In this document: in pieces, positions 1-19,452 of the stretch
Numbering within the stretch: the first letter of the stretch is position 1
Layout of the letters: each line of letters begins with the position of its first letter
Assembly: GCA_964499205.1 (NCBI GenBank)
Contig: CAZCJX010000006.1
Span: 2,533-66,532, forward strand
Direction of reading: 5' to 3'
Length of the DNA stretch: 64,000 bases
Source: an uncultured Actinomycetes bacterium
GTDB taxonomy: Bacteria; Chloroflexota; Dormibacteria; Aeolococcales; Aeolococcaceae
Notes under the pieces: model-generated
The model's input: the letters and a program-made list of their open reading frames with translations, nothing else
Database searches by the model: none
What the model was told of the DNA's origin: nothing
Position numbers and translations under genes: made by a program

Positions 1-828
1 GCTGGTGCTGGCCCACAGCGGGCGCTGCACCAGCGCGCCGGCCTCGCGCAGCGTGGCGAAGCGCTCGCCGAGGAAGACCTGCTCGAACTTCTCGTAGGCC
101 AGCACCGCGTTGGCGATGGCGGCGGTGCCGAGCAGGCTCTGCAGCTCCTCGTTGTCGGGGTCGTCCCGGAGCTTGGCCTCGAGCTTCTTGTCGACGGCGG
201 TGTCGACGCGCGACACGAAGAAGGACGCGACGCTGTTGACGTGCACCGACTCGCCGCGCTCGAGGCGCTGTTCGAGACCGCGGATGTAGGCCTCGGCCAC
301 CGCCTCGTAGGCGCTGAGCGCGAAGATCAGAGTGATGTTGACGTTGATGCCGGCGGCGATGAGCCGCTCGATGGCGGGGATGCCCTCGCGCGTCGCCGGT
401 ACCTTGATCATCAGGTTGGGACGCTCCACCCGGGTCCAGAAGTCCTTGGCCATGGCCACGGTGGCCTCGGTGTCATGGCCGACGCGGGGAAGCACCTCCA
501 GCGACACCAGGCCGTCGGCGCCGTCGGTCCTGTCGTAGACCCCGCGCAGGGTGTCGGTGGCGTGCTGGATGTCGCTGATGGCGATGTTCAGGAACAGCTC
601 GTCGGCCGAGGTCACGCCGGCGTCGACCAGCTGCCGCAGGTGCTCGTCGTAGTCGGTGCCCTGCGACACCGCCTTCTGGAAGATGGTGGGGTTGCTGGTC
701 AGGCCGGTGACGTTGTCCTCGTCGATGTAGCGCTGCAGCCGGTCGGTGACGACCAGCTCGCGAGAGATGAAGTCGAGCCAGACGCTCTGGCCGTGGTCGG
801 CCAGCTCCTGGAGCGGGTTCTTTGCCAT
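1..828 (-). CDS. tal: Transaldolase (5' part; runs off the window's left edge)
   Basis: Manual translation from ATG at 828: MAKNPLQELADHGQSVWLDFISRE...GLTSNPTIFQKA...NLMIKVPAT (Schiff-base Lys)...SVASFFVSRVD; adjacent to tkt. Not in the ORF track because it is truncated. Confidence 0.95.
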   Translation of the reverse strand, partial: MAKNPLQELADHGQSVWLDFISRELVVTDRLQRYIDEDNVTGLTSNPTIFQKAVSQGTDYDEHLRQLVDAGVTSADELFLNIAISDIQHATDTLRGVYDRTDGADGLVSLEVLPRVGHDTEATVAMAKDFWTRVERPNLMIKVPATREGIPAIERLIAAGINVNITLIFALSAYEAVAEAYIRGLEQRLERGESVHVNSVASFFVSRVDTAVDKKLEAKLRDDPDNEELQSLLGTAAIANAVLAYEKFEQVFLGERFATLREAGALVQRPLWASTS

Positions 829-839
829 GTGCGCTGCCT

Positions 840-2885: not shown

Positions 2886-2973
2886 GAGGCGAACTCCTCC
2901 GCTGCTCGGCGGCCACTCGGCGGCGCGGTGCCGCACCCCCCATGATGGCGAGAAGGGGGTGGGCAGTGCAGCG

Positions 2974-3693
2974 TCAGCCCGGCCCGAGCAGCCCGGCGAC
3001 GGCGCAGGCCGCGGCGGCCCTGATCGCCTCGTGGTGGCGGCGGTCCGCCTCGCGCTGGGTGCGGCGGAGGCTGGGGGCGACGTAGCCGAGCGCGGTGCGC
3101 CACCAGGGGCGGCCGGTGGCGCCGTCGGGGACGTCGCGGAGCAGGTCGCGGTCGTGCTCGGGGTCGTTGGTGGTGATGCCCAGGCAGACCAGGGTGACCC
3201 CACCCATGGCGGCGGCGGCGTCGCGCCAGACGTCGACGTTGGGGTCCCAGGCGGCGAAGCCGGCGGCTTTGAGGGTGTCGCGCGACGCCTGGCCGAGGAC
3301 CGGCTCGGCGACGGCGGCGACCCGGCCGGTGAGCGTTTTGCCGTCGGGGGCCGGTGCCGCCCCCGCGGCGAGGATCGCCATGTCGCGCTCGCCGTCGAGG
3401 ACCACCGTGCCGGGCTCTGCCATCCCCGTGCCGGGGCCGGCGCCGGCGAAGACCAGCCAGCGGGCGCGGGGCATCCAGAAGGAGGCCGCCTGCCGGCTCG
3501 CCTCGTCGCCCTTGCCGCCCACCACCACCGCCAGCGTGCCGCGGTCGGTGACGCAGGTCCAGGCGAGCTTGGCCCGGCCGGCGGGGACGCTGCGGGTCTT
3601 CAGGCCCCGCGCGTGGAGCACGGCGCGGACGGCCTCGGCGTCCTGGTGCAGCGCGCAGGCCACGAGGCCGCTCAGCCAGGGGTCGCTGCTCAC
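2974..3693 (-). CDS. Hypothetical protein, possibly nucleoside-phosphorylase-like fold
   Basis: GTG 3693 overlaps the upstream stop (GTGA). Pattern 'LVFAGAGPG...PGTVVL...[10 protein letters not shown]...AAWD' loosely resembles the PNP/UDP/MTAN superfamily; the fold is a weak inference. Confidence 0.5.
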
Positions 3694-3914
3694 TGCGGCT
3701 GCTTCGCGGCCCCCTGCCCGTGGCCCGCCCGCTCCTCGGCCTTGGTGACCCCGTTGGTCGCCCAGAGCTCCGCCGGGTGCTCGTCGACGATGACGGTGAC
3801 CGCGCCCGGCGGGACGCCGAGCGTGTCGACCACGGTGCGGTGGAGGTTGTCGATCAGGGTGCGGAGCAGCTCGGGGGGACGCCCGCCGACCAGGTCGATG
3901 CGCACCAGGGGCAC
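3690..3914 (-). CDS. 4-oxalocrotonate tautomerase family protein
   Basis: GTG start then PLVRIDLVGGR (Pro1, Arg11), ~74 aa, 'VTVIVDE...LWATNG'; GGAGG SD upstream. Confidence 0.85.
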   Translation of the reverse strand: MPLVRIDLVGGRPPELLRTLIDNLHRTVVDTLGVPPGAVTVIVDEHPAELWATNGVTKAEERAGHGQGAAKQPQ

Positions 3915-4056
3915 GGGTTGGGCCTCCGTGTGTGGGTGTTTGGCGCATTGTGCCGGGCCGGGTGGGGGCGGCGCGCTCCGCGTCGTGCCGGGGGGCGCGG
4001 GGGTTCGGTGTAGAATCCGGGCTGCCGTGCGGGGCTCTCTGGCCCCTGATGGCCGC

Positions 4057-4133
4057 GCGCCCATAGCTCAGCCCGGATAGAGCAGCGGACTACGGATCCG
4101 CGTGCGGGGGTTCAAATCCTCCTGGGCGCGCCA
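4057..4133 (+). tRNA. tRNA-Arg (anticodon ACG)
   Basis: Acceptor stem GCGCCCA/TGGGCGC with encoded CCA; D-arm AGCTCAG..GGATAGAGC; anticodon arm GCGGA-CTACGGA-TCCGC; T-loop GGTTCAAATCC; 77 nt. Confidence 0.97.
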
Positions 4134-4287
4134 TTCCTCTGAGCTCGAACTAGGGCTCTGACGCGTCTCCGGGACGCCGTGCGGGTGTGGTGTATACCTA
4201 CGCGTATAGCTACCGCGGTGGGACTTCGTCCATGCCCATGCAGGTGCGGGAGGCGCGCAGGTCACCGGACGAGCGCGAGCGCCCGAC

Positions 4288-5432
4288 TCAGCGAAAGACT
4301 TCGAGCACCGTCGGCGAGATGCGGTCGTTGAAGTCCGTGATGGTGTTGGCCCCTGCGACCACCTGGATGGTGTGCGTCCCTGGCGGAATGCCTCCCGGCA
4401 CGATGTCGCCACCGCAGAGCAGCATGTGGGTTTCGGCCGGGTTGGCGAAGATCTGGGCGCGCCCCACGGGGTTGCCGTCGATCAGCACGGTGGCGGTGAG
4501 CAGTTGGTTGGGCTGGTGGCTGTAGGCCGAGACCCAGAGGCAGATCAGCTGCGTCCCACCCTGCGAGGTGAACGGCGCCGACGCGATGACGCCGCCGCCC
4601 TGTCGGGTCGCGCACTCGTCGTTGCCCTTGAGCTGGGTGGCGATCGTCGGCGGTGGCAGCTCGAGCACGGTCAGCGCCCAGAGGTCGTTGCTGTCGATCG
4701 TGGTGCCGGTCATGGGTGTCAGGTGGAGCGCGTGGGTCTTGGCTGGGGCAGAGCGGACGCGGTCACCGCCGACCAGCCCATGTGGCTGCTGGCGGGATTG
4801 GCGAAAAGCTGGAAGGTGGCGTTGGGGTTGCCGTCGAGCTGGAGCAGTGCGCCGAGCATCTGGCCGCCGGTCTGCGAGTACCCCGTCGCCGACACCGAGA
4901 TGAGCAGCGGGCCGCCGCTGCAGGAGAAGTTCTGCTGCGTGTACAGGCTCGGACTCGATGCGAAGCCGAACGTCGCCAGGCGCACCAGCGGCGGCACGCC
5001 GATGTCGCTGATGTCGAGGATGGCCATGTTGACGATGTCGTTAGCGTCGGTGGTCACCACGCCGGGGGCGACGACGCCGAACCTCGACTCGCCGTCGGGC
5101 AGCGGCTGGACCTGGGCGCGACGTCGCAGCAGCGCCATGTGGGTCGCCGCCGGATTGACGAAGCCTGCCGTGGACAGCGCTGAGTCGCCCAGGTTGTTGA
5201 CCAGCAGCGCCGCCTTCAGCCCCTGGTTGCCCGACTTCGTCCACGCCGAGCACTGTCAGAACATCACGACCGGTCCCGCCTTCCCGAGGTTGACGATCGA
5301 GTCGGGCACGATCTTCTGTTCTCTGTCGGGTGGGTGGCAGGGATAGTTGGCGTAGACGCTGGCGACGAGTTGCGAACTGGCGACTGCTGCTGCCGCGTCG
5401 CCGGCTGTGCCGGCATCCGTGACCGTGCTCAC
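4288..5432 (-). pseudogene. Interrupted ~380-aa protein of three tandem ~125-aa beta-rich repeats (in-frame TGA at 5256-5258, 1-nt frameshift near 4779)
   Basis: Fragments join into three homologous units with F(V/A)NPAxxHM and T(T/I)DxND motifs; see finding. May be a real pseudogene or sequence error. Confidence 0.7.
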
Positions 5433-5455
5433 GTCCTGTCCGCCTTCGATGGCGA

Positions 5456-5881
5456 TCAGATGCGGTTGACGATCGCCTCGTAGTGCTGCCCGCGCGACGT
5501 CGCAGTGGCGGGAACGAGGAAGAGCTGCACGCTGCCGAGCTCCCGATGGTCGAGTGTCACCGTCTGCTGGCCCGGCGACAGGGCGGAGTCGCCGTTGAAG
5601 ACCAGCGCAAACGTCTGCGGGCCCGAGGTCGTCGAGGCACCGGCGGGCAGGAGGTTGCTGGCCGCGATCAATTCGAGCGACGTGGGGTGACCGCCGGCGG
5701 ACGTGGTCCGGAACCGCGACCCGACGAGACCGCTCCATTGGCTGAAGGTCCATGTGTTGGTCGCGGTCGACGAGGCCTGTGCCGCGACGGCATTGAGCAG
5801 GCGGACCGGCAGGGCGGCGAGGGCCACGGTCGCCGCTCCGGCCCTGAGCAGGGCACGCCGAGTGAAGGTGTGTTGGACCAT
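5456..5881 (-). CDS. DUF6916-like protein with twin-arginine (Tat) signal
   Basis: N-term TFTRRALLRAG + hydrophobic stretch + AVAA. C-term 'FALVF...TLDHRELGSVQLFLVP...YEAIVNR' matches 13762-14100. Confidence 0.75.
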   Translation of the reverse strand: MVQHTFTRRALLRAGAATVALAALPVRLLNAVAAQASSTATNTWTFSQWSGLVGSRFRTTSAGGHPTSLELIAASNLLPAGASTTSGPQTFALVFNGDSALSPGQQTVTLDHRELGSVQLFLVPATATSRGQHYEAIVNRI

Positions 5882-8900: not shown

Positions 8901-11900
8901 TCGGCGTGGGAGTGCCGGTGGTGGTCACCGTGAAGGTGCCCGCCGTCCCCACGGTGAAGGTGGTGTGGTCGGCGCTGGTGATCGCCGGCGCCTCGTTCAC
9001 CTGCAGGGTGAAGCCCTGGGTGGCGTCCGGAGGTGCGCTGTTGTGCGCGGTGATGGTGAAGCTGTATGTGCCGGCGCTGCCCGCCGCGGGCGTGCCCGCC
9101 AGGGTCGCGGTGCCGTCGCCGTTGTCGGTGAAGGTCACCCCGCCGGGAAGGGTGGCCCCGCCGTCACTGATGGTCATCGGCAGCGAGCCCGTCGTGGTGA
9201 CGGTGAACGTGCCGGCCTGTCCCACCACGAAGGTGGTGTGGTCGGCGCTGGTGATGTGCGGCGTGCCCAGCACGTGCAGGGTGAAGTTCTGCGACGCGTC
9301 GGGCGCCACGCCGTTGCTGGCGCCGATGCTGACCGGGTAGTCGCCTGCGGTGCTGTTGCCCGGCGTGCCGGCCAGCGTCGCCGTGCCGTCGTGGTTGTCG
9401 GTGAAGGTCACCCCGCTGGGCAGCGTGCCGGACTCGGTGATCGACATCGAGGCCCCGGCCGGGAACCCGGTGGTGGTGACCGTGAATGTCCCGGCGCTGC
9501 CAACCGTGAACGTGGTGGTGGCCGCACTCGTGATGGCCGGCGGCTGGTCGACGGTGAGGGTGAAGCTCTGCGTGCCGTCAGCGCCGATGCCGTTGTGGGC
9601 GGTGATGGTGAAGGTGTAGGTGCCGCCCGTGCCCGCAGCTGGGGTGCCGGCCAGCGTCGCGGTGCCGTCGCCGTTGTCGACGAAGGTCACCCCACTGGGC
9701 AGCGTGGCGCCGCCGTCGCTCAGCGTCGGCGTCGGGAAGCCGCGCGAGGTCACCGAGAAGGTGCCGGCCTGTCCGGTGGTGAAGGTCGTGTGGTTTGCGC
9801 TGATGACGCTGGCCGCCTCGTCGACGGTCAAGGTGAAGCTCTGCGTCGCGTTCGGGGTGACGCCGTTGCTGGCGGTGATGGTGAAGCTGTACGTGCCACC
9901 GGTGCCGGCCGCGGGGGTGCCGGCGAGCGTGGCCGTGCCGTTGCCGTTGTCGGTGAAGGTCACACCGCTGGGCAGCGTGGCGCCGCCGTCATTGAGGCTC
10001 GCATGCGGGAACCCCGTCGTTGTGACCGTGAATGTCCCGGCGCTGCCAACCGTGAACGTGGTGGTGGCCGCACTCGTGATGGCCGGCGGCTGGTCGATGG
10101 TCAGCGTGAAGCTCTGCACGGCATCAGTGCCGCTGCTGTTGTGCGCGGTGAACTGCAGCGCGTACTGGCCGCCCGTCCCGCTGCTGGGCGTGCCGCTGAG
10201 GACGTGCGTGCTGCTGTCGTAGGTCACCCCGCCGGGTAGCGAGCCGCTGGTCAGGGTGACGCTCGGCGCCGGGTAGCCACAGTCGGTGACGGTGAAGGTG
10301 CCGGCCTGGCCGGTGGTGAACGTCGTGTTGTTGGCGCTGGTGATCGAGGGCGCCTCGTTGACCGTCAGGGTGAAGTTCTGGGTGTCGGTGGCGTCCTGGT
10401 TGGTGGCGGTGAGATGGTTCGTCGCCGTGATGACGATGTTGTAGACGCCACCGTGGCACGCCGTCGGTGACCCGCTCAGCACGCCGGCGCTGGTCAGGGT
10501 GACGCCCGGCGGCAGCGCGCCGGTCTCACTGAAGGTCGGCGGCGGGTAGCCGGCGGCGGTGACGTGGAAGCAGTTGGAGAGGGTCCCCGAACAGCTCACC
10601 GAGGCGCCCACCAGGAAGGTGGCGCTGCTGCCGCTGGTGATGTGCGGCGGTTGGTCGACCTCGATGGTTGTCTGCGTCTGCTGGCCGTCGATGGTGGCGG
10701 TCGGATGGTCGAGACCGCCGGTGCTCCCTGCGGTGTACGTGGTGCTGGCGCTGCCGCTCGAGAGGGTGCCCGAGGTCGGCGACACCGTGCCCAGCGTGCC
10801 GTTGCCGAAGCTCACCGGGATGCCGTCGGGCAGGTGGTGCGCCGGCGCGATGGTGCCGCCGGTGTGGGTGTGGTCGAGGTCGGCGGTCACGGTGTCGGTT
10901 GTGTTGACCAGGATGGCCGCCGCCGACGGAGTCACCGTCAGCACCTGCCAGTTGGTCGGCGTGAAGTTCGTCGCAGTGCCCGGGCCGGTGTTGAAGCCCC
11001 ACCAATCGGTGTTGGCGTTGACGGTGGCCGACGCGTTGTTGATCGCGCCGTTGGTGGTGGCGGTGTTGTTGTAGATGCGGCTGTAGTCGAGGTTGAGGGT
11101 GCCTCCACCATCGTGGACGGCGCCCCCCGTGGGCGCGGTGTTGCCCGTCATCGTCGACCCGCTCATGTTCACCGTGTACGCGGCGCCGCCCATGTCGAGG
11201 GCACCGCCCGAGATGGTCGCCGTGTTGCCGGTGAACGTCGAGTTGGTGATGCTCGACGTGATGGAGTTCCCACTGGAGAGGGCCACCGCGCCGCCGACGT
11301 CTCCGCGGTTGCCGCTGAAGCTCGAGTTGCTGAGGGTGAGGACGGAACCCGTCTCTTCGAGGTCGATGGCTCCGCCCGGGCCGCCGCCTGCGGAGTTGTT
11401 GGTGAAGGTCGACCCGCTCACGGTCAGCGCGCCGAAGACCTGGCTGATTCCGCCACCGGGGACGTTGGTGGCCGTGCTGTACAGGACGTTGTCGTCGAAG
11501 ATGCAGTTGGTGATGGTCGTGTTGTCCACCGGCCCCGTTGCACCGGTGATCAGCCCGGCGCCGCCGAACTGGTTCGTCCTCCCGCCGGAGACGGTCACCC
11601 CGATGAGTGTCACGTTGCGGTTGCCCGCAACGCCGGGATCGACGTCGAAGACACGGAAGCACGTGGCGGGCGCCGACGATGTGCAGGTCGAGGGCTGCTG
11701 GGCATGGATGATCGTCGACGCCGCGCCCGCACCGCTGATGGTGACGGTGACGGGGATACTGGGGCCGATCTGCAGCTCACCCAGGCTCGACGTGAGGTTG
11801 TATGTCCCCGCCGGCACGTTGATGGTGTTCGTCCCGCCCGCGTTGTTGCTCGCCTCGATGGCGGCGCGCAGGCTGCACGGGGAGTTGCAGGTGGTGGCGT

Positions 11901-12102
11901 TGCTGGGTGACAGCGCCGAGTCCGTCGTGGTGGTGACGTTGAAGCTGGCCGCATTGGCCGGCAGGACATGGGAGAGCACGCCGAAGAGGCCGCCCCCGAC
12001 CAGCAGGCTGGAGACGCCGACGGTGGCCAGGTGGCGCGGCTGCAGCCACCGTCCGAGGCGCGTCGTGGCCGTCCGGCCCTGCGCTGTGGTTCCGTCCTTC
12101 AT
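5980..12102 (-). CDS. 2040-aa secreted adhesin-like protein: CSLREA-like N-terminus, GGA(I/L/V)/FxxN beta-helix, 14 putative-Ig (He_PIG-like) repeats, Big_3-like domain, C-terminal beta-helix-like tail
   Basis: Signal peptide ending ANA|A; CSLRAAIEASN; FTNNSAGGGPGGAI / FSGNRGDVGGAV / FTGNTATISGGAL; 14 counted ~92-aa units (ITSA..TTFTVG.AGTF...LP.GVTF.DNGDGTATL.GTP...FTLTV); TTTTVTASTTTPTYGSNVTFTATV. Confidence 0.9.
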   Translation of the reverse strand: MKDGTTAQGRTATTRLGRWLQPRHLATVGVSSLLVGGGLFGVLSHVLPANAASFNVTTTTDSALSPSNATTCNSPCSLRAAIEASNNAGGTNTINVPAGTYNLTSSLGELQIGPSIPVTVTISGAGAASTIIHAQQPSTCTSSAPATCFRVFDVDPGVAGNRNVTLIGVTVSGGRTNQFGGAGLITGATGPVDNTTITNCIFDDNVLYSTATNVPGGGISQVFGALTVSGSTFTNNSAGGGPGGAIDLEETGSVLTLSNSSFSGNRGDVGGAVALSSGNSITSSITNSTFTGNTATISGGALDMGGAAYTVNMSGSTMTGNTAPTGGAVHDGGGTLNLDYSRIYNNTATTNGAINNASATVNANTDWWGFNTGPGTATNFTPTNWQVLTVTPSAAAILVNTTDTVTADLDHTHTGGTIAPAHHLPDGIPVSFGNGTLGTVSPTSGTLSSGSASTTYTAGSTGGLDHPTATIDGQQTQTTIEVDQPPHITSGSSATFLVGASVSCSGTLSNCFHVTAAGYPPPTFSETGALPPGVTLTSAGVLSGSPTACHGGVYNIVITATNHLTATNQDATDTQNFTLTVNEAPSITSANNTTFTTGQAGTFTVTDCGYPAPSVTLTSGSLPGGVTYDSSTHVLSGTPSSGTGGQYALQFTAHNSSGTDAVQSFTLTIDQPPAITSAATTTFTVGSAGTFTVTTTGFPHASLNDGGATLPSGVTFTDNGNGTATLAGTPAAGTGGTYSFTITASNGVTPNATQSFTLTVDEAASVISANHTTFTTGQAGTFSVTSRGFPTPTLSDGGATLPSGVTFVDNGDGTATLAGTPAAGTGGTYTFTITAHNGIGADGTQSFTLTVDQPPAITSAATTTFTVGSAGTFTVTTTGFPAGASMSITESGTLPSGVTFTDNHDGTATLAGTPGNSTAGDYPVSIGASNGVAPDASQNFTLHVLGTPHITSADHTTFVVGQAGTFTVTTTGSLPMTISDGGATLPGGVTFTDNGDGTATLAGTPAAGSAGTYSFTITAHNSAPPDATQGFTLQVNEAPAITSADHTTFTVGTAGTFTVTTTGTPTPSISDGSATLPSGVAFVDNGDGTATLSGTPAAGTGGTYSFTITAHNGVGSDATQPFTLTVDEAPSLTSADHATFTVGSAGTFTVQTAGFPAPGISETGTLPGGITFTDNGDGTATLSGTPASGTGGTYSLSFKASNGVGSDATQSFTLTVDEAPSIASAASTTFTVGTAGSFNVTTGGFPAPSLSDGGAVLPSGVTFVDNGDGTATLSGTPATGTGGTYSFTIAAHNGVGSDATQPFTLTVNEAPSFTSADHATFTVGTAGTFHVSTDGFPAPSIGESGALPGGVTFTDNGNGTATLAGTPAVGSGGTYTLRLTASNGIGTDATQTFTLTVDEAVAITSANNTTFTVGAAGTFKVTTRGFPIPSLSDGGALLPSGVTFADNGDGTATLSGTPAAGTGGTYSFTITAHNGQSTDATQPFTLTVDEAASITSASSTTFTVGTAGSFTVTTSGFPAPSIGESGALPGGVTFTDNGNGTATLAGTPGAGSGGVYHISFTAHNGIGSDGTQNFTLTVDQAAAITSANSTTFTAGSSNTFSVTTTGFPTPSISEVGSLPGGLSFVDNGNGTGTLSGTPNTGTGGVYHISFTAHNGVGSDATQSFTLTVDEAAAITSANTVTFQVNTFNSFTVTTRGFPTPSLSESGTLPSGVSFTDNGNGTGTLSGTPGSGTSSSYPITFTAHNGVGSDGTQNFTLIVGAAPTTTTVTASTTTPTYGSNVTFTATVAPVSPATGTPAGTVTFSVDGVQQATVTLNGSAQAQWTTNSLQQGPHTIRADYNGQANTFKPSFGTVNVTVGCTTNFTGTIKGGVTITGGSACVDNAKISGGVSISGGASVSIVGSTIGNGITSNGARMLAVCGDSTASGSILVGNSTGFVLIGGAGDDPSFSCGTNTVGGGITLSGNSGGFEIGGNSVKGAVTVNNNVLSLGTPLDSENATAEIEANTIKGSLSCSGNNPAPIDDLKPNHVSGGRSGQCGAANF
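9476..9551. repeat. 76-nt exact direct repeat, copy 1 (copy 2 at 10022-10097)
   Basis: gtgaccgtgaatgtcccggcgctgccaaccgtgaacgtggtggtggccgcactcgtgatggccggcggctggtcga is identical at both places, including synonymous positions. Confidence 0.9.
10022..10097. repeat. 76-nt exact direct repeat, copy 2
   Basis: Identical to 9476-9551; start of Ig repeat 3 versus Ig repeat 5. Confidence 0.9.
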
Positions 12103-12174
12103 GGTGTCTGGCTCTCCTCTGTCCGCCGATGTGTCCTCGCCTGAGCATCACCCGGGCTCAGACCGTGTACCTGC

Positions 12175-12702
12175 CTACGGTCGTGCGGGGAAGACGCCCT
12201 GCAGCGCGATGATGAAGGTCAGCCCGAGGAAGGGCATCATGTTGTTGTGCGGTTGGTCGCCTCCCGCGATCGACAGCGAGAACGGGTGCATCGTCGTGTT
12301 GCTGGTGGTGTTGTAGAGAGGCTGCTGGATGCGCTGGAAGAGGGACTCCGCCCAGCTTCCGTTCGTCGGGGCGTTGGCCGTCCCGTTGGCGGCGTTCGGG
12401 TTCGCCGTATGGCCATGCCCCGGCATCTCGCTCTGCAGGAGGGTCACCGTTTGCTCGCCCCCCGTCTCCCCCAGGTCACGCAGGCTGAGGCCGGGACCCT
12501 GACCCTGCTGCATCGGCGCGGAGCCCTGCAGGTTGGGCAGGGCGAAGTTGCTCGTGCCGTTCCCGCCGTAGGTTGTGCCGAGGAGCGAGAACAGCGCGGT
12601 GTTCTGCGAGATCGACATGAGCTGCCCGTCGCACAGCGCCCAGCCCTTGGGAGCGAAGCCGGCGGTGAAGATGCGGATCTCGGCGAGAAAGGGATTGGAC
12701 AT
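12175..12702 (-). CDS. Phage tail-collar domain protein (microcystin-dependent protein-like), type A copy 1
   Basis: MSNPFLAEIRIF...APKGWALCDGQLMSISQNTALFSLLGTTYGGNG..NFALPNLQG...GGDQPHNNMMPFLGLTFIIALQGVFP; 175 aa. Confidence 0.9.
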   Translation of the reverse strand: MSNPFLAEIRIFTAGFAPKGWALCDGQLMSISQNTALFSLLGTTYGGNGTSNFALPNLQGSAPMQQGQGPGLSLRDLGETGGEQTVTLLQSEMPGHGHTANPNAANGTANAPTNGSWAESLFQRIQQPLYNTTSNTTMHPFSLSIAGGDQPHNNMMPFLGLTFIIALQGVFPARP

Positions 12703-12720
12703 CGCGTATCTCGGCTCCCT

Positions 12721-13218
12721 CTAGTTCTGGCTGGGGAAGATGCCCTGGAGGGCGATGATGAAGTTGAGCACCAGGTAGGGCGACATGTTCTCGTGCGGCT
12801 GGCTGCCGCCGGTCACTCCGATGTCGGCAGGGTTCATGGCAGTGTTGGACGCACTGTCGAACGCCGCCGCATCCTGGGTCGACCAGAAGTTGCCCGCGGG
12901 CGTGCCGACGGTGGCGGTCGCCGTGTTGGCGTTGGGCACGTGGGTGTGCGCGGGCAGCTCGCTGATGTTGAGCGTGTGCGTCGTCTCACCGCCCATCTCG
13001 CCGAGGACGATGCCGTTGCCGACGTGGAATGGCGTCCGGCCCTGCAGGTTGGGCAGCGCGAAGGTGGTCCGCCCGTCCCCGCCGTAGGTGGTGCCCAGGA
13101 TGCTGAACAGGGCCTGGTTCTGATTGATGGGCAGCAGAGTCCCGTTGCAGAATGCCCAGCCCTTGGGCGGAAAGTTCCAGCTGATGACCTTGATCTCACC
13201 CAGGAACGGTTCGCTCAT
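12721..13218 (-). CDS. Phage tail-collar domain protein, type B copy 1
   Basis: MSEPFLGEIK...GWAFCNG.LLPINQNQALFSILGTTYGGDGRTTFALPNLQGR...GGSQPHENMSPYLVLNFIIALQGIFP; 165 aa. Confidence 0.9.
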   Translation of the reverse strand: MSEPFLGEIKVISWNFPPKGWAFCNGTLLPINQNQALFSILGTTYGGDGRTTFALPNLQGRTPFHVGNGIVLGEMGGETTHTLNISELPAHTHVPNANTATATVGTPAGNFWSTQDAAAFDSASNTAMNPADIGVTGGSQPHENMSPYLVLNFIIALQGIFPSQN

Positions 13219-13258
13219 CGCGGGAAGTCTCCGATTCGGCAGAAGCGCATCTGCACAC

Positions 13259-13765
13259 TCATGACTGCGACGGGAAGACGCCGAACAGCGAGATGATGAA
13301 GTTGATCACCAGGAAGGGCACCATGTTGTCGTGCGGCTGGCTGCCGCCTGTCTGGCCGATGGCGGTTGCCGCCATGGTGGTGATTCCGTCCGGTGCCGCG
13401 GCGTATTCCGGGTACTTCGGGCTGGCGGCCCACAGGTTGTTCGCCGGGCTGCTCGCGCCCGCGGCGTTGGTCGAGGCCTGGGGCACGTGGCTGTGGGCGG
13501 GGATCTGCTGGGTGGTCAGCGTCACCGTCTCGGCTCCACCCGTCTGTGCCAGCGCGAAGCCCGGCCCGACGTGCATGGGGACCCGGCTTTGCAGGTCCGG
13601 CAGCGCGAAGGTGTTCTGCCCGTCGCCGCCGTAGGTGGTGCCGATGAGATTGAAGAGCGCCTCGTTTTCCGAGATAGCGAGGAGCTGTCCCTGGCAGAGC
13701 GCCCAGCCCTGCGGGGCGAAGTTGCCGGCGAACATGCGGATTTCGCCGATGAACGGTTGACTCAT
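13259..13765 (-). CDS. Phage tail-collar domain protein, type C copy 1
   Basis: MSQPFIGEIRMFAGNFAPQGWALCQG...TTYGGDGQNTFALPDLQSR...GGSQPHDNMVPFLVINFIISLFGVFP; 168 aa. Confidence 0.9.
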   Translation of the reverse strand: MSQPFIGEIRMFAGNFAPQGWALCQGQLLAISENEALFNLIGTTYGGDGQNTFALPDLQSRVPMHVGPGFALAQTGGAETVTLTTQQIPAHSHVPQASTNAAGASSPANNLWAASPKYPEYAAAPDGITTMAATAIGQTGGSQPHDNMVPFLVINFIISLFGVFPSQS

Positions 13766-14100
13766 CGATCCTCGCCTCCCTCACCCGCCGGTGGAATGAT
13801 TCGATTGAACGCGGCTTCCAGGTACAGGCCCTTGTCGTCACGCTTCACAGGCACCAGGAAGAGCGGCTGGGTGCCGAGGTCGGGATGGGCGACGTCGCGT
13901 ATCGCCTGGCTGACGGGCACGTCCGCGGCGACGCGGAACAGCAGCGAGAACTGCTCGCTCGGCGGCACCGCCGCATGCTCCGAGTACTCCACCAGCTCTG
14001 CGGGCACGCTCGCCCCGTCGCCGAAGTCGATGCTGAAGGTGGAGTGGAGCAGCTCGGCGAAGCGCTGCCTGGCCACGGGCTGCTGAATGTCGACGGTCAA
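13762..14100 (-). CDS. DUF6916-like protein (no signal peptide)
   Basis: TTG 14100 overlaps the GNAT stop and follows AAGGAA; 'EQFSLLFR...HPDLGTQPLFLVPV...YLEAAFNR'. Confidence 0.75.
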   Translation of the reverse strand: MTVDIQQPVARQRFAELLHSTFSIDFGDGASVPAELVEYSEHAAVPPSEQFSLLFRVAADVPVSQAIRDVAHPDLGTQPLFLVPVKRDDKGLYLEAAFNRIIPPAGEGGEDR

Positions 14101-14615
14101 TTCCTTCCTTCTCTCCTCGTCTTGGGGTTGGTGGCTGCGACGGGATCCGTCCATTCCATGCGGATGTAGACGCCCTGGGTCTCCAGGGGCCGGAAGCCGA
14201 GCCGGTCGTACAGACGTCGCGCCCCGGCGTTGAACATCTCGACGTGCAGGCGCAGGGGACGTGCCGTGTGCGCGGCCTCGTCCATGAGGGCGCGGACCAG
14301 CCCGGTGCCGATGCCGCGGTTGCGGTACGGCGGCAGCAGGGCGATGTCGAGCAGGTTGACCTCGGCGTCGCTGCGGTCGACGTACAGCCGGCCGACCGGC
14401 TCGCCGTCGAGTTCGATGACCTGGAGGTCCTCAGGCGGATAGGTGCTCGTGTAGTGGACGCGCTGGGCGTGGTACTGCTGGTCGAGGAACGCGGCCCTGG
14501 TGGCTTCGTCCCAGGGGACAAGGGCCAGTTCGTCCTCGCGCGTTGAGGCGTAGATGTCGCGCAGCAGCGCATCGTCCTCATCGGTCACGGCGCGCAGGCT
14601 GACGTCGCCACTCAA
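14097..14615 (-). CDS. GNAT family N-acetyltransferase
   Basis: DIALLPPYRNRGIG (acetyl-CoA motif A), 'N.GARRLYDRLGF'; N-term LRAVTDEDDALLRDIYASTR. Confidence 0.9.
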   Translation of the reverse strand: MSGDVSLRAVTDEDDALLRDIYASTREDELALVPWDEATRAAFLDQQYHAQRVHYTSTYPPEDLQVIELDGEPVGRLYVDRSDAEVNLLDIALLPPYRNRGIGTGLVRALMDEAAHTARPLRLHVEMFNAGARRLYDRLGFRPLETQGVYIRMEWTDPVAATNPKTRREGRN

Positions 14616-14782
14616 CTCAGTCCCGCCTGAGCCTTCACCGCCCGTGACGGGACGCGGCCCTCACGCAGGTCGTCGGTCGGATCCGAACCAATCCGTTGCG
14701 CCGCCATCTTCCGCCCTGAGCCATCCTGCCCCCCGACGGCTCGTTCCCCCCTTAGGGACCGCCAATCGCCGCCGGCTCCGGC

Positions 14783-14811
14783 ACTATAACCCCGGCCTGT
14801 GGCGTTGCCAA
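14783..14811 (-). promoter_or_regulatory. Sigma70-type promoter for the GNAT-DUF6916-collar-adhesin unit
   Basis: TTGGCA-N17-TATAGT on the minus strand, in the gap between 14615 and 14902. Confidence 0.6.
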
Positions 14812-14901
14812 CTGGGTTCGGGTTATTTCCTCACCGAATAATCCTGGGACGGTGAGGATGCGCCCGCTGCTATCACTCTTTTTGCATGCCTGCGCACTCC
14901 C

Positions 14902-15429
14902 TTACGCTGCAGTGGGGTTGGCACCCTGCAGCGCGATGATGAAGTTCACAGGTAGGTAGGGCATCATGTTGTCGTGGCCATTCGAGCCGCCGACGATCGA
15001 TGTCGCGACCTGGCTCATGGCGTTGGGGCCGGTGTCGCGGTACAGAGGCTGCTGGATGCGCTGGAACTCGGAGACCGCCCACACGGCGTTCAGGGGACCG
15101 TCCGTTGAACCGTTGGTGTTGCTGGCGTTGACCTGGTGCGTGTGGACCGGTGTCTGTGGCGCGGTCAGCCACACCTGCGCCTGGCCGCCCCCCACGCCCA
15201 GGGGACGGTTGCTCAGGTTCGGCCCCTGGCCCGCCTGCAGCGGTGTGGCCGCCCGCAGGTCGGGCAGCGCGAAGTTGGTCCTGCCGTCGCCGCCGTAGGT
15301 CGTGCCCAGTACGGCGAACAGCTTGGGGTTGCGGGCGATCGGCAGGAGCTGCCCCTCGCAGAATGCCCAGTCGAGAGGCGCGTACGAGCCCGCGAAGATG
15401 CGGATCTCACCGATGTACGGATCGGACAT
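14902..15429 (-). CDS. Phage tail-collar domain protein, type A copy 2
   Basis: Same collar motifs; 175 aa like 12175-12702 and shares FQRIQQPLY. Confidence 0.9.
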   Translation of the reverse strand: MSDPYIGEIRIFAGSYAPLDWAFCEGQLLPIARNPKLFAVLGTTYGGDGRTNFALPDLRAATPLQAGQGPNLSNRPLGVGGGQAQVWLTAPQTPVHTHQVNASNTNGSTDGPLNAVWAVSEFQRIQQPLYRDTGPNAMSQVATSIVGGSNGHDNMMPYLPVNFIIALQGANPTAA

Positions 15430-15452
15430 CTCTTCTCTCTGACCTCGCTGCC

Positions 15453-15950
15453 TCAGCCGGGTGGCGGGTAGATGCCCTGGAGGGCGATGATGAAGGTCAA
15501 CACCAGGTACGGCGCCATGTTCTCGTGTGACAGGCCGCCGCCGCTCGAGCTGATCGCGGCGCCCGCCATCGCCTGGTCGTTGCTGCTGGCGTAGGCCGCA
15601 CCGTCCTGGGTGGCCCAGAAGTTGCCGCTCGGCGACCCCTTGTCGGCGAGGCTCGCGTTGGCCATGGGCACGTGGTTGTGCGCCGGCATCTCGCCGGTGG
15701 TGAGCACGTGCGCCGCCTCTCCACCCGGCTGGCCGAGGTTGAGGCCGTTGCCCGGGTGGACGGGCACTCGTCCTCGCAGGTCGGGCAGGGCGAACCGTGT
15801 TGACCGGTCTCCGCCATAGGTGTAGCCGATGAGCTTGAAGAGGTTCGGGTTCTGCGAGTTGGGAATCATCTGGCCGTCACAGAAGGCCCAACCCCTGGGT
15901 GCGAAGTTAACGCCGAAAAGCCTGATCTCGGCGATGAACGGCTCGCTCAC
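15453..15950 (-). CDS. Phage tail-collar domain protein, type B copy 2
   Basis: 165 aa like 12721-13218; NFWATQDGAAY vs NFWSTQDAAAF; GTG start overlaps the upstream stop. Confidence 0.9.
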   Translation of the reverse strand: MSEPFIAEIRLFGVNFAPRGWAFCDGQMIPNSQNPNLFKLIGYTYGGDRSTRFALPDLRGRVPVHPGNGLNLGQPGGEAAHVLTTGEMPAHNHVPMANASLADKGSPSGNFWATQDGAAYASSNDQAMAGAAISSSGGGLSHENMAPYLVLTFIIALQGIYPPPG

Positions 15951-16480
15951 GACGCCTCCTCCTCATCCCTCGACGGCGGGCGGCCGTGCAGGGCGATGAT
16001 GAAGTTGATCGGCAGGTAGGGATGCATGTTGTCGTGCGCCTGGCCACCGCCGAACGCGGTGAGGGCCTGGGCCGACATCACCGTGCCGTCCGGCGCCGTC
16101 GCGTATTCCTGGTACTTGGAGCTGCCGGCCCAGAAGTTGCCGGTCGGCGTGTCCGTCCCCGCCTTGGTGGCCGCAGCAAGCGCGACGTGGGTGTGGCTGG
16201 GGAGCTGGGTGATGTCCAGGATGACCTGCTCCGCTCCCCCGGTCTGCGCCGGAGCGTAGGTTCCCGCACAGACGTGCAGCGGAACGCGCCCGCGCAGGTC
16301 GGGCACGGCGAATGTTTGGGACCCGTCGCCTCCATACATGTTGCCGATGACGCTGTAGAGCTCGGGGAACTCGCTGATCTGCAGCAGCCGGCCGTCGCAG
16401 ACGGCCCAGCCGGGGAGCGGTGGCGGGTCGACGCCGCCGAACATCCTGATCTCGCCGAGGTACGGATACGGGTCACTCAA
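15947..16480 (-). CDS. Phage tail-collar domain protein, type C copy 2
   Basis: TTG 16480 (LSDPYPYLGEIRMFGG); SSKYQEYATAPDG vs SPKYPEYAAAPDG in 13259-13765. Confidence 0.88.
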   Translation of the reverse strand: MSDPYPYLGEIRMFGGVDPPPLPGWAVCDGRLLQISEFPELYSVIGNMYGGDGSQTFAVPDLRGRVPLHVCAGTYAPAQTGGAEQVILDITQLPSHTHVALAAATKAGTDTPTGNFWAGSSKYQEYATAPDGTVMSAQALTAFGGGQAHDNMHPYLPINFIIALHGRPPSRDEEEAS

Positions 16481-16789
16481 CCGGAAAGCCCCCCTGTATC
16501 GTGAGCGTCGCGACGCCCGATCAGTCCGCCACCGTGCGCGCACTATAAGGTGCGAATCGTCCGCGTGCATACAATTCGGTCACGAATCTTGCGGGCGCCC
16601 GCTGCGCAAGTGTGGCAACTGCTTCCATGCCGGAGGGGATCGCACGCCCAGCGCCACCGGAATCGCCCCCGTCACGGTCCCCCTGGCGGCCCTGCTCGCG
16701 GCGTGTTCCGGGCCGGCTCCTGCTGCTGCTCGGCTGGCGCCGTACCCGCCGCGCGCCGGCGCCGATGCAGCCCTGATGCCTAGAGGCGA

Positions 16790-17017
16790 GGCGGGCGCCG
16801 CCTCGCAGTCGTCGTGGTCGTGGAAAGGCATGCTCCGGCGCGACGCGGTAGGCGACGCTCACCACCGCCGCGCCGAGGCGCTGCGTAGGTCGTGGAGGAG
16901 TTGGTCGCGCAGGTCGTGGCGACCGCCGATCCAGCCGACGGCGCGTTCCACTGCGTCGGGCTGCTCGCGGACGGGCGCGAACGGATTCTCGATCGTCGCC
17001 GGCTGCATCGCCGTCAT
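16790..17017 (-). pseudogene. Remnant of an alpha/beta-hydrolase (HSL-type esterase)
   Basis: ATG 17017 overlaps the GH3 stop. Pieces in three frames read GWIGG...DQLLHDL / RLGAAVVSVAYRVAPEHAFP / HDDCEAA, matching the canonical GGW.GG...VVSVDYRLAPEHPFP...DDC; the catalytic GxSxG half is absent. Confidence 0.65.
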
Positions 17018-19452
17018 CCAGACTGCTGCGGACGCGCGCCTTCGTATTCCAGCACGACGCGCCGCCGGATGTCGCGCGACGACGCGCCGAGCCGCAGCTC
17101 GTAGCGTCCCGGCGGAGCCACCCAATCGAGGACGCCGGGATCCCAGCAGGAGAAGGCACGCTCGTCGAGGTGGATGACGGCGTGCCCCGTCTCGCCCGGA
17201 TCGAGCGTGAGCCTGGCGAAGCCGCGCAGCTCCTGCTCGGGGCGCAGCACCGGACAGGGCCCGGCGGCGACGTAGAGCTGCACGACCTCGCTGCCGCGCC
17301 GCGACCCGGTGTTGGTGACCGGCACCCTGACGACCACGTCGGAGCGGCGCGCCTCGACACGCGGCTCGCCGTACTCGAATGTCGTGTAGCCGAGGCCGTG
17401 CCCGAAGCAGAACGCCGGCTCGGTGCCGTCGCTGTCGAATTGGCGATATCCGACCAGAACTCCCTCCCCGTACTCGACGGCGCCGTCAGCACCGGGGTAG
17501 GTGCGCCAGGCGGCGACGTCCTCCATGCAGCGCGGGAAGGTGACGGGGAGGCGGCCGCCGGGCTCAGCGGCGCCGGTCAGGATGTCGACAAGCGCCGCGG
17601 ACCCCTCTTCGCCGGGGTACCAGGCCATCAGCACCGCGGCAGCCCTGTCCGCCCACGGCATGGCCACCGGCGCTCCGGCGTTGATCACCACGACGGTGCG
17701 CGGGTTGGCCTCGGTGACTCGCCACACCAGCTCGTCCTGCTCGCCGGGCAGAGCCAGGCTGGGCCGGTCGCGGCCCTCCGTCTCGTAGTCCGGGTCGTTG
17801 CCGACGACGACCACGACGGCGTCGGAACGCCGTGCCAGGTCGACCGCGCGGTCGATCCCTCCAGGTGCGGCGAGCGGCCGGGCGCCGATGCTGAACCCGC
17901 TCAGTCCGGGCTGCTCGGACACATAGCGCACCTCGAGCTCGTGCTCGGCGCCGGGCTCGACGTCGATGGGCGCGAACGTCGTCGCGCTGCCGTGGCCGAA
18001 GAAGGTGTCACCTTGCTCCGGAGTCGTGTGGTCGAGCACCAGGCGTCCGTCGAGGTGCACGGTCGCCCTGCCGACTGTCGCCAGAGAGAGCTCCCACGCG
18101 CCGGGGTGTTCGGGCGTGAAACGGCAGCGGGCGCGCACCGAGAAGGGCTCACCGGGGCGGCCGCCCTGCGGCGCGCCGAAGGTGATGAAGAAGCCGCTCC
18201 AGCTCCGCTCCGCATGCACCGGCTCGCCGGCCCACTCGGGGTTGCCGAAGTACTCGAGGGCCATTCCGTCGGGCATGAGGTGCGAGTCGAGCGGTCGCGC
18301 GGCGAGCTCGACGCGGCAGCCTTCCTCGTAGCACACCTCGGCATCGCCAAGCCGCGTGCGCAGCGCGTCGAGAAGCGGGGTGTGCTGCAGCGGCGCCACC
18401 ATCGAGCTGCCGCCGCCTCCCTCCATCAGGTGCTTGGCGTTGGGCCCGATGAGGGCGATGCGCCGTAGCGACGGATCGAGCGGCAGCATGCCGTCGTTGC
18501 GCAGCAGGACGGTGCCCGTGACCGCGATCTCGCGCGCCAGGGCGCGCCGCTCCGGGTCGTCCTCCTCGCGCTCCGGCGATGCCGTGGGCTGGTCGAGGAG
18601 GCCGGTCCGCTCTGCGAGGCGGAGCACGCGGTGGCAGTGGTCGTCGAGGACGGCGCCCTCGACGTCACCGGCGCTGACCGCCGCTGCCAGCTTGGCTCCG
18701 AAGTGCCGCGCGGGTCCCGGCATCTCGACGTCGAGCCCGGCCTTGGCCGCATCGACGGTGCTGTGCGTGCCGCCCCAGTCGGAGATGACGACGCCGTCGA
18801 AGCCCCACTCCTCCTTGAGCACCGTGGTCAGCAGCCAGTCGTGCTCGCCGCAGTACGTGCCGTTGAGCCGGTTGTACGCCGACATCACCGCCCACACGCG
18901 GGCCTCGCGCACCGCCGCCTCGAACGCGGGCAGATGGATCTCGCGCAGGGTGCGCTCATCCACCTGGGCGCTGATGGTCATGCGCTCGCGCTCCTGGTCG
19001 TTGCAGGCGAAGTGCTTGACGCAGCACGCAACGCCGCCCTCCTGCACGCCGCGCACATAGGCCACGGTGAGCCGGGCGGTGAGCAGGGGGTCCTCGGAGA
19101 ACGACTCGAAGGTCCGGCCGCCGAGCGCGATGCGCGGTATGCACACTGTGGGCCCGAGCAGGACGTGCACGCCCTTGAGCTTGGCCTCCGCCGCCAGCGC
19201 GGCACCGTATCGGCCGGTCAGCTCGACGTCCCACGTCGAGCCCACGGCGATGCCGCACGGGAAGGACAGCGAGCGGTGGATGGCGAAGGACTCGCCGCGC
19301 ACGCCGCAAGGGCCGTCGGACATCTTGAGGCGGCCGATGCCGGCGCCGGGAAGCGCTGGCAGGTGCCAGGTGTCGTCGCCGGCGCTGAGCGTGGCTCGCT
19401 CATCGAGGGTGAGCCGCTTCAGCAGCTGTGCCGCGCGATCGGTTGCGGTCAG
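17014..19452 (-). CDS. GH3 beta-glucosidase-like glycosidase with PA14-like insertion and C-terminal Fn3-like domain
   Basis: SDGP.GVRG, GRTFESFSEDP, KHFACNDQE, VISDWGG (nucleophile Asp), ETEGRDR, FGHGLGYTTF. The N-terminus (LKRLTLDERATL...TWH) extends in frame to a CTG at 19452. Confidence 0.92.
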   Translation of the reverse strand: MTATDRAAQLLKRLTLDERATLSAGDDTWHLPALPGAGIGRLKMSDGPCGVRGESFAIHRSLSFPCGIAVGSTWDVELTGRYGAALAAEAKLKGVHVLLGPTVCIPRIALGGRTFESFSEDPLLTARLTVAYVRGVQEGGVACCVKHFACNDQERERMTISAQVDERTLREIHLPAFEAAVREARVWAVMSAYNRLNGTYCGEHDWLLTTVLKEEWGFDGVVISDWGGTHSTVDAAKAGLDVEMPGPARHFGAKLAAAVSAGDVEGAVLDDHCHRVLRLAERTGLLDQPTASPEREEDDPERRALAREIAVTGTVLLRNDGMLPLDPSLRRIALIGPNAKHLMEGGGGSSMVAPLQHTPLLDALRTRLGDAEVCYEEGCRVELAARPLDSHLMPDGMALEYFGNPEWAGEPVHAERSWSGFFITFGAPQGGRPGEPFSVRARCRFTPEHPGAWELSLATVGRATVHLDGRLVLDHTTPEQGDTFFGHGSATTFAPIDVEPGAEHELEVRYVSEQPGLSGFSIGARPLAAPGGIDRAVDLARRSDAVVVVVGNDPDYETEGRDRPSLALPGEQDELVWRVTEANPRTVVVINAGAPVAMPWADRAAAVLMAWYPGEEGSAALVDILTGAAEPGGRLPVTFPRCMEDVAAWRTYPGADGAVEYGEGVLVGYRQFDSDGTEPAFCFGHGLGYTTFEYGEPRVEARRSDVVVRVPVTNTGSRRGSEVVQLYVAAGPCPVLRPEQELRGFARLTLDPGETGHAVIHLDERAFSCWDPGVLDWVAPPGRYELRLGASSRDIRRRVVLEYEGARPQQSG

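Follow-up and report, generated by a model that had tools for sequence, protein, structure and literature searches.

Why would a bacterial chromosome carry genes for phage tail collar proteins in two sets of three, and do the three proteins of a set form a single complex? We addressed this question in a 64-kb stretch of DNA (referred to here as the window; positions 2,533 to 66,532 of contig CAZCJX010000006.1, assembly GCA_964499205.1) from an uncultured bacterium that GTDB places in the Aeolococcaceae (Chloroflexota). Six intact collar genes, encoding proteins of 165-177 amino acids (aa) each, lie on the minus strand at 12175-16480. In the order of transcription the locus reads C2-B2-A2, a GNAT acetyltransferase gene, a DUF6916 gene, C1-B1-A1, the gene of a 2040-aa secreted protein (the giant protein), and a second DUF6916 gene; C2-B2-A2 is referred to here as set 2 and C1-B1-A1 as set 1. 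A first-pass annotation, made from the sequence alone, had proposed that a collar triplet was duplicated as a unit and that its members are three non-equivalent subunits. Our data indicate that A, B, and C are ancient orthologous classes that are inherited together. We favor, with a probability of roughly 0.6, an explanation in which each triplet would encode one A:B:C heterotrimeric knob and the two sets would be alternative heads of a shared cassette.

Collar proteins form three ancient classes

Pfam model PF07484, the Phage Tail Collar Domain, was matched by all six proteins over their first ~60 residues (E 1e-24 to 1e-29), with model positions 1-57 of 57 covered and scores of 84-102 bits against a gathering score of 24 bits. 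A search of one-genome-per-species contigs with B1 returned at least 592 relatives, and the best 80 loci were used for comparison. These loci belong to Acidobacteriota, Actinomycetota, Chloroflexota, Pseudomonadota, Verrucomicrobiota, Bacteroidota, Cyanobacteriota, Gemmatimonadota, Myxococcota, and other phyla. Adjacent collar open reading frames (ORFs) stand in threes at all 80 loci, one of which has six. The family is large, since more than 7700 homologues below an E of 1e-20 are present in the protein collection that was searched.

A FastTree phylogeny of 237 proteins contained three clades (79 members in B, 78 in A, and 78 in C), and no locus occurred twice in any of them. This tree left A2 and C2 outside the clades as two long branches joined with a support of 37, a pairing that was superseded by mixture-model trees and by the addition of orthologues from two related loci, L176 and L178. 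With the mixture model, IQ-TREE recovered the classes from 84 rows (support of 99/88 for A, 100/93 for B, and 98/89 for C), with the nine collar proteins of the genome in position-matched classes, and again from 102 rows that included the orthologues (98/88, 100/92, and 95/84, respectively). Hidden Markov models (HMMs) of the classes, built without the proteins of the window, place all nine collar proteins of the genome in the position-matched class as well. Plain pairwise identity was tried as a class test and was ambiguous (52.1% for A1/B1 vs. 50.9% for A1/A2), so the trees and class HMMs were used instead. Overall, homologues group by their position in the triplet and not by triplet, with a support of 95-100 for the three clades, as the first-pass annotation had expected.

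Exactly one A, one B, and one C are present at 79 of 79 comparison loci. The same content, adjacent and co-oriented, is found in both sets of the window and in a third set on another contig of the genome (C27). Gene order varies among loci (BCA in 37, CBA in 36, CAB in 2, and ACB in 1) while class content is constant. The A/B/C split predates all 79 loci, which span more than 10 phyla, and is ancient rather than local. Three non-equivalent orthologous subunit classes are well supported.

The first-pass annotation had read the lengths of the six proteins, the C-B-A order of both sets, and all quoted motifs correctly (FQRIQQPLY and Q(Q/A)GQGPxLS in A1/A2; NFW(S/A)TQD.AA in B1/B2; KY(P/Q)EYA.APDG in C1/C2). 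As private marks of the classes the motifs do not hold, since they are located in a hypervariable head and each occurs in 2 of 79 class members, the window's own pair. Variants of the head motifs (FQRIQQPLY, NFW.TQD, and KY.EY) occur in L006, L176, and L178; the head motifs mark the relatedness of sets 1 and 2 and not class identity. Class signatures sit in the conserved scaffold (the collar and a C-terminal strand) and comprise a five-residue insert in class A, which is GQGPNLSNRPLG in A2, and class-specific LF..LG and FIIALQG blocks.

Inheritance and duplication of the triplet

Across 79 loci the distance matrices of A, B, and C are correlated, with a Mantel r of 0.73-0.75 and a permutation maximum of ~0.2. 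The source genome is an 83%-complete metagenome-assembled genome (MAG) of 368 contigs; related assemblies of its GTDB genus carry the label Candidatus Angelobacter, a genus that NCBI places in Acidobacteriota. It contains nine collar genes, compared to three in each of three same-genus genomes and in one other genome of the family. In a sample of 401 genomes from the phylum the domain is present in 25 genomes, 13 of which have exactly three copies, and nine copies are found only in this genome. Single-copy collar genes in the sample mostly encode longer proteins with lower scores.

Tandem repeats of whole triplets were found as independent cases at three loci (L025, L167, and L168), and at each of them position-matched proteins have a higher identity than other pairs (Table 1). 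At L168, nine consecutive collar genes follow a strict period of three. That the triplet is the unit of duplication and inheritance is well supported. The earlier proposal of a unit duplication of non-equivalent subunits is upheld in this respect by the trees, the class HMMs, and the congruent placement of set 2, but the class split is older than the locus.

A third cassette of the genome is found at L001 on contig C27 of the MAG (G000) (Table 1). Its 2125-aa secreted protein has DUF7933/DUF11 repeats, not He_PIG repeats, and its collar set (set 3) belongs to a distant clade of the family. Since the C27 cassette has a different giant protein, the giant partner is exchangeable. A concatenated tree of 34 triplet sets conflicts strongly with taxonomy, and since the triplet tree cuts across phyla, frequent horizontal transfer of whole cassettes is indicated. 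In this tree Thermoanaerobaculia group with Herpetosiphonaceae, and the clade that holds G003 and the window does not include the same-genus genomes G001 and G002, which fall elsewhere.

Origin and maintenance of set 2

L178, a 473-kb metagenome contig, has the layout of the window (C-B-A, GNAT, DUF6916, C-B-A, and a 2038-aa He_PIG protein that is the counterpart of the giant protein) and conserves both TATAGT promoters, and L176 contains set-2 orthologues followed by the start of a GNAT gene. The downstream set of L178 (L178d) is 77-84% identical to set 1. Identity to set 2 is 71-80% for L176 and 57-64% for the upstream set of L178 (L178u); C2 has orthologues with 71% identity in L176 and 64% in L178u, and A2 has one with 72-73% (P0002/L176). 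The shared layout and orthologues indicate that the double arrangement predates the split of these three organisms and that both sets were kept. A peptide-pattern search of metagenome contigs for relatives of A2 gave a best match of 54%, and a search of the protein collection gave relatives of 73% and 58%.

The set-2 lineage is a clade with a support of 100 in each class tree, and its placement is congruent in a concatenated A+B+C tree of 515 columns: ((set 1, L178d), (L006, (L016, (L178u, (set 2, L176))))). Support was 99/99 for the whole group and 96/96 for its second half. Set 2 is nearer to the lone sets found in L016 and in the same-genus MAG L006 than to set 1, which belongs to the same seven-member clade. 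A recent copying of set 1 into set 2 is contradicted by this grouping with L006 and L016. Approximately unbiased (AU) tests per class did not reject an exclusive clade of sets 1 and 2 (p of 0.22 and 0.18), so on single-gene data the two origins, duplication within the lineage and uptake of a related set, look alike. The result would fit uptake of a related whole triplet as well as an ancient duplication of the unit that was followed by losses, and under either origin the triplet moved as a unit. The GH3 and transketolase neighbors of the window are not beside the cassettes of same-genus genomes, and therefore no empty site is definable.

Set 2 is faster-evolving and less constrained than set 1, and is under purifying selection, not decaying. 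In crude Nei-Gojobori estimates, the ratio of nonsynonymous to synonymous substitution rates (dN/dS) is 0.20-0.35 in set 1 and 0.25-0.55 in set 2 for whole proteins, and 0.13-0.25 and 0.21-0.57, respectively, for the scaffold.

Protein architecture and known relatives

Each protein consists of the scaffold, an HxH motif, a head of ~45 residues, and a GGxQPHxNMxPYL block. The collar domain begins at residue 1, the N-terminus is conserved as M-S-x-P-F/Y, and the proteins have no shaft or attachment region. All 237 proteins carry HxH, H142 is invariant, and the GGxQPHxNMxPYL block contains an invariant His and Asn. Axial histidines coordinate a metal on the three-fold axis of T4 gp12 (Zn) and gp37 (Fe), and HxH and the second invariant His could bind a metal on the trimer axis here. 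Set 1 and the Angelobacter set L002 share 84-91% of scaffold residues and 33-38% of head residues, a contrast that would be expected of a binding surface under diversifying pressure. Positive selection has been reported in the family for Solibacter paralogues (PMC3174227). A surface recognition knob appears to be the most likely function. In all chains set 2 deviates at the same three conserved columns (T82 to W/V/I, P141 to G/S/A, and F161 to N/Y/P).

PHROG matches are full-length and restricted to the tip part of tail-fiber families, and matches in the PDB include 8KEC, 'Long tail fiber' (profile search, E 2e-10), and T4 gp12, 1OCY (E 0.004-0.007). With T4 gp12 (1OCY, 1PDI, 5IV5), the gp37 tip, and 8KEC the proteins share the collar, the HxH stretch, a variable head, and a C-terminal strand. 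In contrast to the gp12/gp37 type, which are long shafted homotrimers in virions, they are 165-177 aa long, start at the collar, fall into three fixed paralogous classes, and have no phage neighbors. COG4675 'microcystin-dependent protein' (MdpB) and RhiB of Rhizobium leguminosarum have the same Pfam domain and carry the same database names that are given to homologues of the proteins studied here; these are names without a known mechanism. RhiB has been reported with a collar domain (PMC13133039), but rhiABC is a quorum-sensing operon with one collar protein and not a cassette of A/B/C, GNAT, and DUF6916. COG4675 proteins were detected in soil metaproteomes (PMC5579227), and therefore the family is expressed.

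In the virophage DSLV2, three consecutive PF07484 proteins co-purify 1:1:1, with fibers of ~16 nm (PMC12724248, J Virol 2025). The AlphaFold 3 score of this triplet is higher for the heterotrimer than for homotrimers, and positional groups of three collar proteins are conserved across 45 virophages (PMC12724248). DSLV2 and the Aquatic Virophage 1 lineage share with the window three consecutive, co-oriented, short PF07484 genes of similar length. The DSLV2 triplet is a virion component encoded beside the minor capsid gene, whereas that of the window is chromosomal and stands with GNAT, DUF6916, and giant secreted protein genes; the ORFs seen on either side of the triplets include no capsid gene or other gene of a virus. 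Assembly in a 1:1:1 ratio was measured in DSLV2 and is predicted for the bacterial triplet. The DSLV2 triplication looks independent of the bacterial A/B/C split, since the three DSLV2 proteins cluster together and with Synechococcus phage fibers (PMC12724248). No description of a bacterial A/B/C triplet was found in the literature searched.

Cassette neighbors, gene features, and promoters

A GNAT homologue adjoins the triplet in 63 of 81 loci. By tblastn, homologues of the DUF6916 protein without a signal peptide are found in 35 of 81 loci, and homologues of the second DUF6916 protein, of the twin-arginine translocation (Tat) type, in 31-34 of 81, often alongside the signal-less form. At 22 of 81 loci, and at all 4 loci of relatives, the triplet has a neighbor homologous to the N-terminal region of the giant protein. 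A large secreted neighbor with beta-helix and Ig repeats is frequent but not universal, and is present for set 1. Set 1 adjoins its own GNAT and DUF6916 genes, while set 2 is without its own and lies directly upstream of them. No defense model of PADLOC-DB matched the six collar proteins, GNAT, or DUF6916, and no NCBIfam model matched the collar or DUF6916 proteins; the closest NCBIfam model to GNAT is RimI, with a score under its cut-off.

Coordinates are collected in Table 1. An ATG at 16570 would extend C2 to 207 aa, and this start is disfavored because the conserved promoter block sits downstream of it. B2 starts with GTG and overlaps the C2 stop by 4 nucleotides (nt); the B2-A2 gap is 23 nt and the spacer from A2 to GNAT is 286 nt. 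The GNAT and DUF6916 genes overlap at TTGA, and the DUF6916 stop overlaps the C1 start at ATGA. Gaps of 40 nt (C1-B1), 18 nt (B1-A1), and 72 nt (A1-giant gene) follow. B1 is 76-78% identical to its counterparts in other Candidatus Angelobacter MAGs. The GC content of third codon positions (GC3) is 88-92% across all six collar genes, similar to housekeeping genes. The 323-aa ORF between C2 and the GH3 gene is probably no real gene, in which case the set-2 promoter region would directly follow the GH3 gene.

The window contains the hexamer TATAGT three times, compared to 0.67 expected; for two copies, which lie upstream of the sets, the strand is correct. The first-pass annotation had assigned each set a TATAGT -10 element of its own; both elements are there, but the second precedes GNAT (start at 14615) and not C1 directly. 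In L178 the orthologous upstream set is preceded by a conserved copy of the block ATGC..GCGGACGAT.CGC...TATAGTGCGCGCA that surrounds the set-2 TATAGT, and no good -35 element was found for this TATAGT. TTGGCA-N17-TATAGT is the sole promoter-like match in a scan of 11900-17000, and both hexamers and their spacing are conserved in L178, L176, L084, L082, and L083. Since its TATAGT sits upstream of GNAT, the set-1 transcription unit would be GNAT-DUF6916-C1-B1-A1, probably with the giant gene. A terminator scan near A2 found none that is canonical, and the two hairpins 3' of A2, which have no U tract, are a possible non-canonical terminator or processing site. Two separate transcription units appear likely.

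Between the GNAT promoter and an upstream ORF (uORF) lies a conserved leader of ~70 nt with a small hairpin (region 14612-14782, minus strand); in the consensus fold of the leader, from a poorly trimmed alignment, the small hairpin has few compensatory pairs. uORFs of 29-31 codons are present at the equivalent position in L178 and L176; GNAT itself starts, in frame, at the same invariant ATGGCGG in L082 and L083. No Rfam family was found in 12000-17000.

Table 1. Features of the window and of triplets at other loci. Coordinates refer to the window unless another locus is named.
Feature	Position	Strand	Description
Two ORFs, ~140 aa each	4288-4713; 4719-5138	minus	Downstream of the Tat-type DUF6916 gene; no Pfam match, no homologue in 85 related loci
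Second DUF6916 protein	5456-5881	minus	PF21880, E 7.6e-18; twin-arginine (TRRALL) signal-like N-terminus, read from sequence; adjoins giant gene on its downstream side
Giant secreted protein, 2040 aa	5980-12102	minus	Signal peptide, N-terminal beta-helix-like region, 14 He_PIG Ig repeats, Big_3_5 (Pfam)
A1, class A, set 1, 175 aa	12175-12702	minus	PF07484, E 4.5e-26; A-class HMM +66 bits; 77% identity to L178dA
B1, class B, set 1, 165 aa	12721-13218	minus	PF07484, E 1.2e-26; B-class HMM +66 bits
C1, class C, set 1, 168 aa	13259-13765	minus	PF07484, E 1.7e-29; C-class HMM +54 bits; 84% identity to L178dC
DUF6916 small protein	13762-14100	minus	PF21880, E 1e-20; without signal peptide
GNAT acetyltransferase, 172 aa	14097-14615	minus	PF00583, E 3e-15
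uORF, 31 codons	14612-14707	minus	TGA overlaps the GNAT TTG start
TTGGCA-N17-TATAGT promoter-like site	14783-14811 (TATAGT 14783-14788)	minus	Upstream of GNAT; 10/12 consensus matches
Two adjacent hairpins	14829-14897	minus	Directly 3' of the A2 stop; RNA fold -31.7 kcal/mol, z = -2.9 vs. shuffles
A2, class A, set 2, 175 aa	14902-15429	minus	PF07484, E 3e-26; A-class HMM +19 bits; A clade 98-99/88
B2, class B, set 2, 165 aa	15453-15950	minus	PF07484, E 1.4e-27; B-class HMM +16 bits; B clade 100/92-93
C2, class C, set 2, 177 aa	15947-16480	minus	TTG start; PF07484, E 7.6e-24; C-class HMM +26 bits; C clade
323-aa ORF	16521-17492	minus	C2-GH3 interval, overlaps GH3 ORF; marginal Abhydrolase_3 match, E 9e-4, below cut-off
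TATAGT -10, set-2 unit	16542-16547	minus	62 nt before the C2 TTG start
Third cassette, same genome	L001 (G000 contig C27), 367-9389		GNAT, DUF6916 (partly N-masked), C3-B3-A3, 2125-aa secreted protein
Tandem triplets, L025 (Jatrophihabitans)	3-3329		Position-matched identity 77-82%, otherwise 47-53%
Tandem triplets, L167	4414-7690		Position-matched identity 61-66%, otherwise 38-48%
Three tandem triplets, L168 (IMGVR_UViG_2848685470_000004)	1-5456		Position-matched identity 52-67%, otherwise 33-48%

Proposed explanation and alternatives

We propose that each triplet encodes one A:B:C heterotrimeric knob that is homologous to the receptor-binding tip of phage tail fibers. The knob would be composed of an N-terminal collar trimerization domain, an axial His metal site, a hypervariable head of three chains, and a C-terminal strand. 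The triplet is the core of a non-phage cassette that has spread horizontally among bacteria and also contains GNAT, DUF6916 (one or two proteins), and usually a giant secreted protein. In a small clade this cassette gained a whole triplet on its upstream side, through duplication or transfer of the unit, and at least three related organisms have retained the added triplet and its promoter. The two sets would be alternative, separately transcribed knobs with different heads that draw on the same GNAT, DUF6916, and giant proteins; sharing is proposed because no accessory genes belong to set 2 itself. A reasonable guess is that the RimI-like GNAT acetylates the knob N-terminus, and a further guess is that the Tat-signal DUF6916 protein exports the folded complex by hitch-hiking. 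We infer metal binding, accessory sharing, a cell-surface location, and a role in recognition or adhesion. Sets 1 and 2 are unlikely to be interchangeable, since their heads are 43-49% identical and set 2 has co-varying core changes, and it is plausible that they are differently regulated, which would fit the two conserved promoters.

An obligate A:B:C heterotrimer seems likely to us, because the classes are retained 1:1:1 and because of the co-purification study of DSLV2. Two further observations would point weakly in the same direction. Triple co-deviations at conserved columns occur 7 times across loci compared to 1.5 expected, in events that are not phylogenetically independent, and co-deviation between subunits is significant for A-C and borderline for B-C. 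The AlphaFold2 model of B1 alone was poor (predicted local distance difference test, pLDDT, of 30.5) and was still poor with a 43-sequence alignment (pLDDT of 55.9, predicted template modeling score of 0.24). Several points weigh against the proposed explanation. Co-deviation of A-B is not significant, and 2 of the 7 triple co-deviations are artefacts of the start codon or of start choice. Foldseek matches of the B1 model in the PDB were meaningless (E above 6) and uninformative. None of the six collar proteins has a signal peptide, which bears on the export route and an extracellular location, and accessory sharing by set 2 is argued only from the absence of such genes beside it. In addition, the characterized phage homologues T4 gp12 (solved as 1OCY, 1PDI, and 5IV5) and gp37 are homotrimers.

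Three separate homotrimers (AAA, BBB, and CCC) might be kept together since the cassette needs three knobs, for sites on the giant protein or for ligands. Three co-regulated homotrimers would equally show 1:1:1 retention and joint inheritance, and linkage and correlated distances also follow from co-function without mixing. Yet the scaffold is 84-92% conserved within a class and only ~50% between classes, class A has its scaffold insert, a class is missing or doubled at 0 of 79 loci, and set 2 alters the same conserved core positions in three chains. Moreover, the only consecutive collar triple that has been biochemically tested is a heterotrimer (PMC12724248), and we regard three homotrimers as rather unlikely. 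That set 2 is redundant and drifting towards loss, with only set 1 functional, we consider improbable. Its long branches, a scaffold dN/dS that is 2-3x that of set 1, substitutions at invariant or near-invariant sites (G20D in A2, G49R in B2, and F16D in C2), the lack of its own GNAT, DUF6916, or giant gene, and its poor -35 element would agree with decay. All three ORFs are nevertheless intact in the window, L176, and L178, whole-protein dN/dS remains below 1, the -10 block is conserved in L178, and GC3 is at the level of housekeeping genes. The axis-candidate residues HxH, H142, N144, and P147 are all retained, and the nearest outgroups, L016 and L006, have the set-2 type as their only set, in the main position.

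The genes might also be remnants of a prophage or tailocin, that is, ordinary tail-fiber genes left in the chromosome. Pfam and PHROG names refer to tail collar or tail fiber, homologues are called 'microcystin-dependent protein', 'phage tail protein', or 'tail fiber protein' in databases, and a few IMG/VR contigs contain triplets. Such contigs are rare, as there were 10 matches in 2.9 million viral contigs compared to at least 592 relatives in species genomes. Among the ORFs next to the triplets, in the window and at related loci, none was seen for phage structure, replication, or lysis; the neighbors encode GNAT, DUF6916, an adhesin-like giant protein, a GH3 glycosidase, and a transketolase, and the same non-phage neighbors recur across more than 10 phyla. 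Given also that the proteins lack a shaft or attachment region, we find a phage remnant highly improbable.

Significance

The heterotrimeric knob, if true, would be among the few natural C3-symmetric fiber tips that are split into three co-evolving chains, and would provide a binding scaffold with three independently variable head loops. Annotation as 'phage tail protein' or 'microcystin-dependent protein' suggests prophage remnants, while these genes are actually a conserved three-gene unit in a non-phage cassette found in more than 10 phyla. The bacterial A/B/C cassette is undescribed in the literature searched and is defined here by comparison. Cultured carriers, which include Bradyrhizobium erythrophlei, Mesorhizobium huakuii NBRC 15243, Roseateles saccharophilus DSM 654, and Nocardioides pelophilus, make experiments feasible.

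The genome keeps two head sets at one locus and a third complete cassette elsewhere. A more speculative idea, which we hold to be something of a long shot, is that the cassette is a modular surface-recognition device in which one chassis (giant protein, DUF6916, and GNAT) carries alternative heterotrimeric heads; in a bolder variant, mixing across sets would give up to 27 heads from nine genes. If true, such a device would let the cell switch or broaden its recognition, and would be a cellular counterpart of tail-fiber cassette switching in phages. The locus shows evolution handling the triplet as a duplication unit, and with two sets, one accessory group, and separate conserved promoters it offers a handle on specificity switching. 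Seen against the virophage heterotrimeric collar tip, it is a relative that is encoded in a cell, embedded in a cassette, and here conserved as a double set.

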